From a virus: a stretch of DNA of 64,000 nt. A model generated the notes under the pieces. It made no database searches and had not been told where the DNA came from. It worked only from the letters and a program-made list of their open reading frames with translations. Shown here in pieces: positions 44,101 to 47,100 of this stretch; the first letter of the stretch is position 1, and the number at the start of each line of letters is the position of its first letter. The translations under genes and the position numbers were made by a program. Location of the stretch: positions 44,298-108,297 of the IMG/VR virus record IMGVR_UViG_3300011114_000773; one strand, written 5' to 3'.

Positions 44101-47100
44101 TAGCCTCCACAAGTTTCATCAGGTCTGGATGACCAGCGGCGATTCCCTTTTCTTTGTTGTATCGACCGACGGCGTATTGCACGCGCATCCCGGCATCATT
44201 AAAATCATAGAAATCTTGCCCGACTCTATCGCTATGATATGCTAAAAGAGCATGACTAATTTTAGGCGGATAAGTCAACTTACCAAGCGCCGACTTCTTT
44301 TCGGCAGTCGTCCTCTTGTCTTCGTCAAAGGTGAACCCAGCTTTTCCCAAAAGAGCAAAATCAATACCGCCCTTGTCGCTCATTTTATTTTCTATTCCTC
44401 TCAGGGCTTTGTTGTCAACGTGCATCGGGTTGAGCATCGTCTCCCTGTTTTTACTGAAAAGTCCACTTGAGCCGTATGCACTTCTTACATGAGCGTACGC
44501 TTCTTCTTGACTCATGGACTCTGCCAATTTTTGTCCAGCCCCCTCTGCCGTTTTAGGTACTAGAGAGTGCTTTGCTGCTTCGTTGTAGGTCTGCTTCGGG
44601 AATTCGAGTGAGAAGTCGATTCCTTCGCTCTGACCGATTTTTTCCCATTCGGTAGAGCTTGGGGTTTTGAATTCTTTATCTTTAGCACGAGCCTTCCTTA
44701 AATACTCAGAACGATTCCTTAGCGACGCTAGGTTACTACCATAAGTTAAATCGTGCCATATCGACGGAGGTAGCGACTTTTTAGCTTCTTCGAGGCCAAG
44801 TCCTTCGCTGTCCTGACGTGATAGCGCCGCCCGAATATCGGTAGCTTGAGCGATACGAGAGTTACCTCTGCGAGCAGGCTGTACGTCCCACCCTTCAATG
44901 AGCCTCTGTCTAGCGAATGATGTTCTTTCTTGGTAAGCTGCCTCAGACTCATTTTCGCCCTTCTCAGAGAGTCTATCTGGCCCGAAGATAGCCGTGCTTC
45001 TCGCCAGACCTTCTTTTCTGATACCGAACTCGTAAGCTTTTCCTCCAGCCTCAAAGGCCTTAAATCCGGGCTTTGTATCGCGGATTTCGCTTGTGACCAA
45101 TGCCTCTGGGTGGAGTCTGGAAATTAAATCAATTTTTTCTGATACGGATAGGCCGACATCGCTTCCTCTTTTTTCGCCGCGAGCTACAGAGATAACCGCT
45201 TTACGGAGCATCGCATTAGGATTCTCCGCAGCATCTTGCGCTTGATGCTCTAAAATGGTCTGATATAGTTCGTCGTGTCCGATATGATACGGGGTAAAAG
45301 CACCGTTCATCGCAAGAACTCCTTGTAACTCCTGAAAGTGAATCTTCTCTTCGTCCGTTTTGTCTCTCATGGAGAAACTATTACCAGACCGCTCTATTAC
45401 TTTTACGGTTGTCTGGTTCTTGTCATTCCAATACTTATGCAGGGCCGCTTCAAGGAAAGCGCCACTAGTAGGCCCGTGGGTATAGCCCTTGCGACCAAAA
45501 GCGGTAGGAGAGTTTTCGTCTTCCGCTCTTTTTGTGCGGAACTGTTTGATTATGTCCGAGGAGGCGACGAGATGAGTAATTGAGCGAGCCTTGTCAAATT
45601 CTTTTTCGTTATGCTGCTCGAATGGATTCGCCAAGGCACGAGTAACGATGACTCTATCGTCGTCTTTAGTGAGCCTCAGCGCTTCCGACGTGCTCCCAAT
45701 GAATGAAGCATTAGGATATTTGCCTTTGATATATGTCGTTTTTCCTACACCAGCAGCGCCAGTTACGAGTTCTCCGATTAGGTCTTTGTTCGTGACATAG
45801 TCTATGATTGCATTGAAATCTTTACGATGTCCTTGCTGTGTTAAGAAGTCCCTATCTAAAACGTGGTAGCGATATTTCTTATCTGGCAGATTGCCTCCAG
45901 CGTAATGCGGTATGACTGCCGAGTCTCCATTTCGACCAAAATTAGGAATCTCTGTCTCCTGATTATTCATCACGAAACGCTTGCCGCCGATAGTACCACG
46001 AGAAGTATGTGCGCGGACCCCGCTAGAAGCGCCCAAGGAGCGGGCCTCGGCCTCTTCACGTTGCATTATGTTAAAATTAGGAACCCATCCATGAGCGACA
46101 GTTGCCATTGTCGCCCTAACTTGTGGGAATATCGGCTGACCACCAATGCCTCTTGGCGGAGTCTGGAGTATTTTCGCTAAATCTAGTGAGTTCCTCTTCA
46201 GAACTAATGTAGCCTCGTTTTGGCTTGCTAGCTCGTGAGTGTATCTACGAGCCGCGTCCACAATGGTTAATCGTCCCGCCCTAATTTCTTCTAGTAAGTC
46301 CGGCTGTTTAGACAAGAAGGCGGAGGTGGACTGCTCAATAGCTTGTAGCCTGCTAGCTTCAGTAGTTATTTGGAAGAACTCTCTAGTAGCTACCGTTCCG
46401 AACTGGACCAATCTTCCAAACAATTTCAGAATAGCAAACGTCGCGATTTGTACGCCGGGTCCGCTAAGGATATTTCCGATTCCTTTTAGTAAACCCTCTC
46501 CAATTTTTTCTCCGATTCCATCTCCGTCGATTTGTCCCGAGAGATTCTCTGCCGCCCATTTTCCGAAATCCAGACCCGATTTCATCACTGGAGCAATTGT
46601 TAAACTACCAAATTTAGACGACATCTCCATAAAGGAGTTCATCGTTTGGGTTAATTTACCAGAAACTGTATTGTTGAGTTCTTCGATACGGCGGTTTGCT
46701 TCTCCAGAACTTTGACCAGCAGCTTTCAAAGCTCCGTCAAAAACGGAGGTTCCCTGTCCCAAATCGCGCATTGCTGCTTTTAAAATGTTAATCTGATAAA
46801 CGCCGCCCAGTAACTCAGCCGTCATTGACCTTTGAGATGGGCCTAGCAAGTCATATCTTTGAGCGAGATTCTTTAAAATGTCAACTAGCGGGCGTATTTC
46901 CCCAGCAGCAGTTCTCGTCTGGACCCCAAGACTCTCCAATTGCTGAAGGACTTCTGGACGACCCATTCTCGTGAAAATTGTCTTGAACGCGTTACCGATA
47001 ACAGCACCACCTCGCGCCGTGCTCTGCTGAACACTCGTAATAAGCGCCAACATCTGATTAAAGGTGACATTTGCGTCGGAAGCGCTAGCGCCGACACGCT

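Follow-up and report, generated by a model that had tools for sequence, protein, structure and literature searches.

Enzymes in which a kinase and an HxGH nucleotidyltransferase are fused are known in metabolism (NadR, CoA synthase), and the idea of injected multi-domain proteins is known as well. In the phage NAD+ route NARP3, a PnuC-like importer takes in nicotinamide riboside (NR), which is converted to NAD+ by a NadR-like enzyme (Bas30_86) that combines an HxGH transferase and a P-loop kinase in one polypeptide (PMC13464706). CoA synthase (PPAT and dephospho-CoA kinase), PAPS synthase (APS kinase and ATP sulfurylase) and HldE also couple phosphorylation and nucleotidyl transfer on one metabolite. 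Polyvalent proteins combine many unrelated enzyme domains (ART, GNAT, metallopeptidase) in a single chain, for which injection together with the DNA and processing by a zincin-like peptidase have been proposed (Iyer et al. 2017; PMC5512222); in its text that work mentions neither tape measure proteins nor zeta toxins nor P-loop kinases, and its nucleotidyltransferases are solely of the pol-beta type. Here we describe a module formed by a P-loop kinase and an HxGH nucleotidyltransferase that lies inside a giant tape measure protein (TMP) of an uncultured marine phage. It is encoded in a stretch of 64,000 nucleotides (hereafter the window) of the IMG/VR record IMGVR_UViG_3300011114_000773, which is 108 kb long and estimated to be about 60% complete. 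Like the polyvalent proteins, this TMP contains many unrelated enzyme domains in one polypeptide; it differs from them in that the carrier is a TMP and in that a repeated GxVPNF linker stands between the domains. What sets this module apart is the divergent lineage of both domains, their order (reversed with respect to NadR), their carriage by a TMP, and their occurrence so far in about a dozen uncultured phages.

The module is encoded within a single open frame of the minus strand (38189–47734; 3181 amino acids (aa); translated stretch 38192–47734). Since this open reading frame (ORF) of 3181 aa matches PF10145 (PhageMin_Tail, phage minor tail protein) at aa 122–309 (E 1.6e-28), it was assigned as a TMP. 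Translation probably omits the opening codons TTG and TTT and starts at the ATG at nucleotide (nt) 47728, where the database copy P0012 (3179 aa) begins; numbering in P0012 equals the numbering used here minus 2. A first-pass annotation of the window, made from the sequence by a model, had described a TMP cassette consisting of a P-loop kinase and a HIGH nucleotidyltransferase. All the motifs that it quoted were found where it had placed them, and translation located every one of them inside the 3181-aa TMP. The domain pair was thus confirmed; it is neither a pair of genes nor a cassette standing by itself, but an internal segment of the TMP, with PF10145 on the same ORF. The features of the locus are the following:

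38189–47734, minus strand: giant TMP ORF containing the module, in one open frame, with PF10145 and repeated linkers.
45875–45904, minus strand: degenerate N-terminal linker YAGGNLPDKK (aa 611–620); relatives carry GHVPNFA here, directly before the module.
45350–45877, minus strand: P-loop kinase half (aa 620–795).
45848–45859, minus strand: LDRD (aa 626–629), with L-D-x-D invariant in all full members; candidate catalytic aspartate block.
45734–45760, minus strand: Walker A motif GAAGVGKTT (aa 659–667, with Lys665), which is G-x-x-G-x-G-K-(T/S)-T in all members.
45527–45541, minus strand: lid FRTKR (aa 732–736), followed by T-x-F-G-R (aa 744–748); Arg733, Arg736 and TxFGR are invariant.
44600–45349, minus strand: HxGH nucleotidyltransferase half with C-terminal helices (aa 796–1045), assigned by hhalign and, via relatives, by matches to PF16581 and 3GMI.
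45275–45286, minus strand: HIGH (aa 817–820) inside NGAFTPYHIGH (aa 810–820); relatives have T-(K/E/S)-G-H.
44972–44986, minus strand: FGPDR (aa 917–921), consensus (L/F)-G-x-D-R after the fourth strand, paired by hhalign with G-a-D of NadD.
44831–44848, minus strand: QATDIR (aa 963–968), consensus (S/A)(G/A)T-x-(I/V)-R, then G-D...L-P-x-x-(V/I); pairs with ISxTxIR.
43637–44599, minus strand: downstream segment (aa 1046–1366); here it runs on from the module with no linker, and relatives have it as a distinct module between linkers.

Linkers of the type G[HYW][VI]PNF occur in the TMP at aa 552, 1366, 1552, 1750, 1923, 2065 and 2143, with EIPNF at 597, and these repeats delimit cargo modules over positions 41306–46081 of the window (minus strand). 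Several unrelated enzyme domains are thereby carried in one TMP: an N-domain, the kinase, the transferase, a weak GNAT match and further inter-linker modules; the location of the pair in a TMP with further modules of the ART-like and GNAT-like kind was likewise supported. An exhaustive phmmer search with aa 595–1045 against 1.84 billion representative proteins yielded only 9 proteins at E <= 0.001, six of them giant TMPs (2264–4105 aa) and the remaining three short pieces (178–348 aa) of such proteins. One of the nine (P0009) paired only with a mini-domain at the start of the query, and not with the kinase or the transferase. Two close relatives (P0013 and P0014; 88–93% identity) were obtained by word-indexed and pattern searches, and five DNA loci containing the unit (L020, L021, L033, L034 and L035) came from marine and other metagenomes and from IMG/VR. 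The module was found only in giant TMPs, about a dozen of them, which come from uncultured phages in viral and marine metagenomes.

In P0004, P0005, P0006, L020, L021, L033 and L034, a G-x-VPN(F/L)-A linker immediately precedes (V/I)-L-D-(R/K)-D, and in P0004, P0005, P0006 and the DNA loci the unit stops about 425 residues further on, at the next linker. Most relatives have GxVPNF linkers on both sides of the unit, and a linker was never found between kinase and transferase. Judged from these relatives, the true unit is aa 620–1045 (nt 44600–45877, minus strand); it extends slightly further at the 3' end than the 44700 of the range first proposed (44700–45890). Treating the two halves as separate cassettes was considered and rejected, because no relative has a linker between them; P0011 contains a kinase-like unit without the transferase. 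In the clade of the window both flanking linkers have decayed (GGNLPDKK upstream, none downstream), so that the unit is continuous with the following 320-aa segment, which is a separate module elsewhere. The module was not found in 185,579 species-representative prokaryote genomes (two scans, with no bacterial or archaeal prophage copy), and tblastn and blastn searches of 50,697 phage GenBank records gave no match. No free-standing relatives were detected in the exhaustive phmmer search or in a near-length search with the transferase profile, and P0005 was not recovered among viral contigs.

Relatives with only 27–41% identity retain the Walker A motif, the RxxR lid, G-A-F-x-P-x-(T/H)-x-G-H, G-x-D-R and (S/A)-(G/A)-T-x-(I/V)-R, which indicates that these motifs are not chance strings. 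The identification of two enzyme domains, a P-loop kinase followed by a HIGH/HxGH nucleotidyltransferase, was in this way borne out, with both order and motifs conserved in relatives. Comparison of the kinase half with that of an 83%-identical relative (L002) gave dN 0.094 and dS 0.87 (dN/dS 0.11; 195 codons), indicating purifying selection and that the sequence is maintained as protein.

A few additional observations were made on the relatives. The related TMPs (2264–4105 aa) shuffle differing modules between identical linker types. Two IMG/VR contigs, L034 (3300032011_003089) and L035 (3300037427_002834), are identical in the DNA of the module; in the former the TMP frame stays open over the whole retrieved stretch, for 4075 aa, and in the latter it stops at 2786 aa, so that L035 could be genuinely truncated or the two assemblies could differ. 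P0007, a 348-aa fragment protein among the phmmer results, diverges in frame from the module past the kinase half, and it may be a chimeric or frameshifted gene call rather than a genuine short version. One of the 11 aligned proteins matched Pfam Aconitase (E 8e-14).

Invariant residues of the kinase half are L-D-x-D (626–629), Lys665, D693...R699-A700, R733-x-x-R736, T744-x-F-G-R748, E-A-x-L and a terminal S-(L/M)-K. An R-x-x-R lid is a hallmark of P-loop kinases; in this family R733-T-K-R736 is invariant and is placed in a helix after model strand 124–130. AlphaFold modelling with an 11-row alignment gave a pLDDT of about 80–90 for the kinase half; a single-sequence AF2 run had a pLDDT of 38.7. 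The best fold matches of this predicted structure were zeta-type toxin kinases, AvrRxo1, archaeal adenylate kinases and polynucleotide kinase (PNK), the closest predicted neighbours being the zeta-type kinases (ng_zeta1, with AvrRxo1 as second best). Among predicted viral structures (BFVD) the top matches were phage "Zeta toxin domain" proteins, and ESM (language-model) features of this half led to AAA_33/Zeta_toxin clusters. Foldseek searches with the two-domain model were noisy, with low TM scores. Pfam Zeta_toxin (PF06414) gave no match at E <= 10 in the copy of the window or in relatives, and hhalign to the streptococcal pSM19035 zeta toxin aligned the P-loop only. Similarly, with a profile of the NadR ribosylnicotinamide kinase (RNK) domain, built from 7 NadR kinase domains (E. 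coli and six phages), only 18 P-loop columns were aligned (Prob 38–51%).

In ng_zeta1 two sequence blocks are swapped, so that the catalytic Asp56 precedes the P-loop Lys115 (PMC5923241). In the module, the LDxD block precedes the Walker A lysine by 36 residues; the structural alignment of the model with ng_zeta1 begins with residue 27 of the model and residue 48 of the chain. From order and alignment ranges, the LDxD block may be equivalent to the Asp56 block; the candidate catalytic aspartates are the invariant D627/D629 (LDxD) and D693, and the ranges are compatible with Asp56 of ng_zeta1. Unlike the zeta-type kinases (ng_zeta1, PDB 6EPG/6EPH; streptococcal zeta/PezT; AvrRxo1, 4Z8Q), the kinase of the module forms part of a TMP, where it is joined to an HxGH transferase; it shows no sequence-level match to those kinases and lacks an antitoxin or chaperone partner. 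It lies within the TMP ORF, and a small partner gene next to it is not possible. According to the predicted structure, the kinase half is most likely a small-molecule P-loop kinase whose structural type is that of zeta toxin/ng_zeta1.

Regarding the transferase half, its consensus includes G-A-F-x-P-(F/Y)-(T/H)-x-G-H, V-x-F-V-x-x-G-x-x-R-x-x-D-x-G-L-S-x-x-E-K, F-E-x-G-G-K-A-Y and (L/F)-G-x-D-R, and ends with (S/A)-(G/A)-T-x-(I/V)-R-x-A-x-x-x-G-D...L-P-x-x-(V/I). By hhalign, the GAFxPxxxGH motif is in register with GxFxPxHxGH of NadD, CoaD, NadR, RibF and HldE. The AQATDIR of the window (aa 962–968), which in relatives is SGTxIR or SATKVR, pairs with the ISxTxxR motif of NadD, NadR and 3GMI at the start of a helix. 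The family profile was compared with reference profiles of 7 sequences each, and matched the NMN adenylyltransferase (NMNAT) domain of NadR with Prob 86.9% and P 4.2e-6 over 126 columns, NadD with Prob 89.3% and P 2.1e-6 over 146 columns (HxGH, then G-x-D, ISxTxIR and L-P-x-x-V), and CoaD (PPAT) with Prob 89.8% and P 1.8e-6 over 66 columns; comparisons with single E. coli sequences did not discriminate subfamilies. The true score of 43.3 exceeded those of the reversed control (10.0), of 20 column shuffles (<=14.7) and of 20 shuffles in blocks of 12 columns (<=33.4), and therefore motif content and motif order both contribute to it. The NadR-NMNAT, NadD and CoaD profiles match one another at P 1e-10 to 2e-14. 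Since these reference families are mutually far closer, the transferase of the module was considered an outlying branch of the superfamily. By these comparisons it shows no detectable preference for NAD enzymes over PPAT, and PPAT is as close to it as any reference.

Further support came from the relatives. Those at L021 and L020 score above the curated cut-off of PF16581 (E 1.7e-9 and 2.2e-6; 38.4 and 28.3 bits versus 26.7), which is the only database family that members of the module pass above its curated cut-off. A three-sequence family profile (A5) gave 3GMI as its sole PDB sequence match (E 2.1e-5), over ISGTKIR...LP; 3GMI is MJ0951, a UPF0348 protein of unknown function. The tRNA acetate ligase TmcAL presumably belongs to this family. 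PF16581 (HIGH_NTase1_ass, "cytidyltransferase-related C-terminal region") and 3GMI share with the module the ISGTKIR...G...LP stretch; they differ in that the match covers about 40–50 residues of a 205-position model and in that the copy of the window falls short of it. A literature search on PF16581, UPF0348 and MJ0951 found nothing useful, and a profile of the whole-TMP alignment was uninformative against PDB. ESM features led to viral PF01467 and citrate-lyase-ligase clusters (0.91), and the predicted succession of elements agrees with the Rossmann-like fold of the superfamily: strand, HxGH helix, strand, helix, strands, G-x-D, helix, strand and ISxTxIR helix. Based on these motif and profile comparisons, the C-terminal half was assigned to the HxGH (cytidylyltransferase-like) nucleotidyltransferase superfamily.

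Since the two halves are always inherited together in one linker-bounded unit, a coupled two-step reaction on one metabolite is most likely. The explanation that we favour, with a confidence slightly better than even, is that the TMP carries an injected two-domain enzyme in which a zeta/ng_zeta1-type kinase and an HxGH transferase would perform coupled two-step chemistry on a nucleotide-like metabolite. The TMP exits the tail ahead of the DNA, so that the unit would probably reach the host cell at the start of infection. Cleavage at the GxVPNF linkers may also release it; a zincin-like module was noted in the same TMP in the first-pass annotation. The coupled steps would be the ATP-dependent phosphorylation of a hydroxyl group followed by the transfer of a nucleoside monophosphate from a nucleoside triphosphate onto a phosphate, or the same steps in reverse order, on the model of NadR, CoA synthase and HldE. 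The predicted catalytic residues are Lys665, Arg733/Arg736, Asp627/Asp629 and His817/His820.

Several points weigh against this explanation. Searches of Pfam, PHROGs, NCBIfam and PDB sequences with the copy of the window gave nothing significant, and PF01467 (CTP_transf_like) had no match at E <= 10 either in the protein or in the whole 108-kb genome fragment, in which no NMNAT of this family was therefore found. The transferase was modelled with a pLDDT of about 60–70, fold searches with the two-domain model gave lists filled by kinase matches, with none for the transferase, and hhalign probabilities were all below 95%. The flanking linkers are degenerate in this phage and the unit may stay joined to its neighbours; delivery and cleavage are predicted steps only. 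A phage tail moreover holds few TMP copies, as in lambda and T5, and this limits any bulk metabolic role.

Among the other explanations considered, one would make the kinase a toxin-like metabolite kinase in the manner of zeta or AvrRxo1, which would phosphorylate UDP-sugar wall precursors or NAD/NAAD at entry and disable a host pathway, while the transferase would extend or diversify the product or act elsewhere. It is consistent with the two best fold matches, ng_zeta1 being a UNAM/UNAG 4'-kinase (PMC5923241) and AvrRxo1 a NAD 3'-kinase (PMC5087710, PMC5491322), with the phage zeta-toxin-domain proteins at the top of the BFVD matches, with the position of LDxD ahead of the P-loop, which recalls the swapped blocks of ng_zeta1, and with the effector-like character of neighbouring modules. 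However, Pfam Zeta_toxin did not match, the hhalign alignment to streptococcal zeta was restricted to the P-loop, we infer the residue match between LDxD and Asp56 only from block order and alignment ranges, and few molecules would have to turn over a large pool. Taking these points together, we consider this explanation unlikely. We also know of no zeta-type toxin that is fused to an HxGH transferase.

For the coupled enzyme that we favour, we conjecture from the low copy number of the TMP that a catalytic role as a poison, in decoy making or in signal destruction is more plausible than bulk biosynthesis. In a further reading, the module might be a new kind of injected effector that rewrites metabolites, with the ng_zeta1-type kinase and then the HxGH transferase acting in the first seconds of infection on a host metabolite or an immune signalling nucleotide. 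The substrates may be, for example, NAD/ADPR derivatives or UDP-sugars, and the result would be a dead-end or inhibitory dinucleotide that blunts defence or cell-wall repair. No phage virion protein is known to perform two-step chemistry of this kind. In this specific form the proposal is decidedly unlikely.

The first-pass annotation had interpreted the module as a reversed NadR that regenerates NAD+: the kinase would convert NR to NMN and the transferase NMN to NAD+, either to counter NAD-depleting defences or to feed the co-delivered ART. In favour of it, the transferase profile matches NadR-NMNAT (P 4.2e-6) and NadD (2.1e-6), so that the transferase halves of the module and of the NARP3 enzyme are detectably homologous; a NadR-like route exists in phages, with NadR homologues in 770 phage records; and the ART-like module of the same TMP would consume NAD+. 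The genome provides a further element. About 25 kb upstream of the window, in the same viral record, there are a Nampt-family ORF (PF18127 and PF04095, 562 aa; G000:C1:16283-17971, minus strand, which is L024:8284-9972) and a PRPS-like ORF (PF14572/PF13793/PF00156, 302 aa; G000:C1:19076-19984, minus strand, which is L024:11077-11985), two small ORFs apart. NARP1 rebuilds NAD+ from ADPR and nicotinamide, with no NMNAT, and its gene pair is defined by Pfam signatures (bioRxiv 10.1101/2024.02.11.579819); those found here are exactly the defining ones. By these signatures, the phage appears to have a dedicated expressed NAD+ pathway of the NARP1 type apart from the module, and NAD+ is therefore evidently contested in its host.

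This same pathway argues against a NadR-like role, since NARP1 already rebuilds NAD+ without an NMNAT. Besides, the match to PPAT was equally good, the kinase pairs with the RNK profile at the P-loop alone, and NadR was absent from the 50 best fold matches. No match to PnuC (PF04973) at E <= 1 was found in the 108-kb, about 60% complete record, and NR is not a product of NADase defences. On stoichiometric grounds, a few injected TMP copies could hardly refill a cellular NAD+ pool of millions of molecules. The tblastn search with the module was empty in the 50,697 phage records, although NadR homologues abound there, and it recovered none (0/770) of the NadR-bearing ones. The module also differs from the NARP3 enzyme in its reversed domain order and in lying in a virion protein and not in a free early enzyme. 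The NAD-regenerating claim was thus not sustained, and we regard a reversed NadR as quite improbable. The first-pass annotation had named best matches to polynucleotide kinases or to non-NAD transferases as evidence against its own proposal; such matches were in part obtained for the kinase, although AvrRxo1 is a NAD kinase. With AvrRxo1 as the second-best fold match and an ART-like module in the TMP, an involvement with metabolites of the NAD type was kept among the candidates; an NAD-related substrate of any kind is conceivable, if on the doubtful side. NAD+ salvage is one candidate among several and is not specifically supported, and the finding of a kinase and HIGH-transferase pair in a phage need not mean NAD+ salvage, all the more so as this genome appears to hold a separate NARP1-type route.

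A pair that modifies nucleic acid ends, in which a PNK-like domain and the transferase would act on the termini of incoming phage DNA, or of host RNA/tRNA, to heal, cap or mark them, would fit the ESM features leading to AAA_33 and a next segment that may be a nuclease (it has no database match); a low-copy enzyme would also suit a low-copy substrate such as DNA ends. PNK nevertheless scored below the zeta and adenylate kinase matches, no ligase-type or pol-beta-type domain is present, and HxGH transferases characteristically use small phospho-metabolites and not polynucleotide ends, which makes this explanation very improbable. It is still harder to believe that the module is an inactive relic, with domains that act as structural spacers setting tail length and conserve motif remnants. 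TMP length is established to set tail length, both flanking linkers have been lost in this copy, and this copy matches no database family; against this, every catalytic motif is intact across 27–41% identity, dN/dS is 0.11 in the kinase half, and the segment is predicted to be globular, unlike the helical measuring part of the TMP. Finally, a CoA-type pair (PPAT and dephospho-CoA kinase, as in eukaryotic CoA synthase) supplying cofactor to the GNAT-like modules of the TMP has in its favour the T-x-G-H of relatives, as in PPAT, the CoaD profile match (P 1.8e-6) and the weakly detected GNAT-like module (E 4e-4), but its chances are minimal, given that the CoaD alignment spans just 66 columns, that CoaE scored below the zeta and adenylate kinase matches, that the stoichiometric objection raised for NAD+ applies equally, and that CoA is already present in host cells.

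Returning to the coupled two-domain enzyme, if the pair is active, TMPs would carry into the cell enzymes that modify small molecules, beyond the wall-degrading domains, and the set of "first-strike" phage tools would be wider. Since the copy of the window is missed by Pfam, PHROGs and NCBIfam, the module represents an unannotated enzyme lineage in giant TMPs of uncultured, mostly marine phages.

Other features were observed in the vicinity of the module. Immediately ahead of the cargo array, all related TMPs share a conserved mini-domain, RGTIGGKRFVMNNQETEIPNFGRNGDSAVIPHYA (TMP aa 575–612; 45899–46012, minus strand), of which P0009 has three copies. The segment that follows the module (aa 1046–1366) gave no Pfam or PHROG match; it contains the motifs GAIFDAAF...DFDVP...GDFKSE, which suggest a PD-(D/E)xK-like nuclease, and its equivalent is the separate linker-bounded module in P0004, P0005, L021 and L034. 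The GNAT-like module corresponds to TMP aa 1924–2064 (41540–41965, minus strand), where PF13673 was matched with E 3.9e-4 and 20.8 bits, below its cut-off of 23.6. Outside the TMP, a probable fibre or decoration protein of 913 aa is encoded at positions 53157–55898 (minus strand); it combines collagen triple-helix repeats with a number of immunoglobulin-like domains (PF13927, E 1.4e-25).

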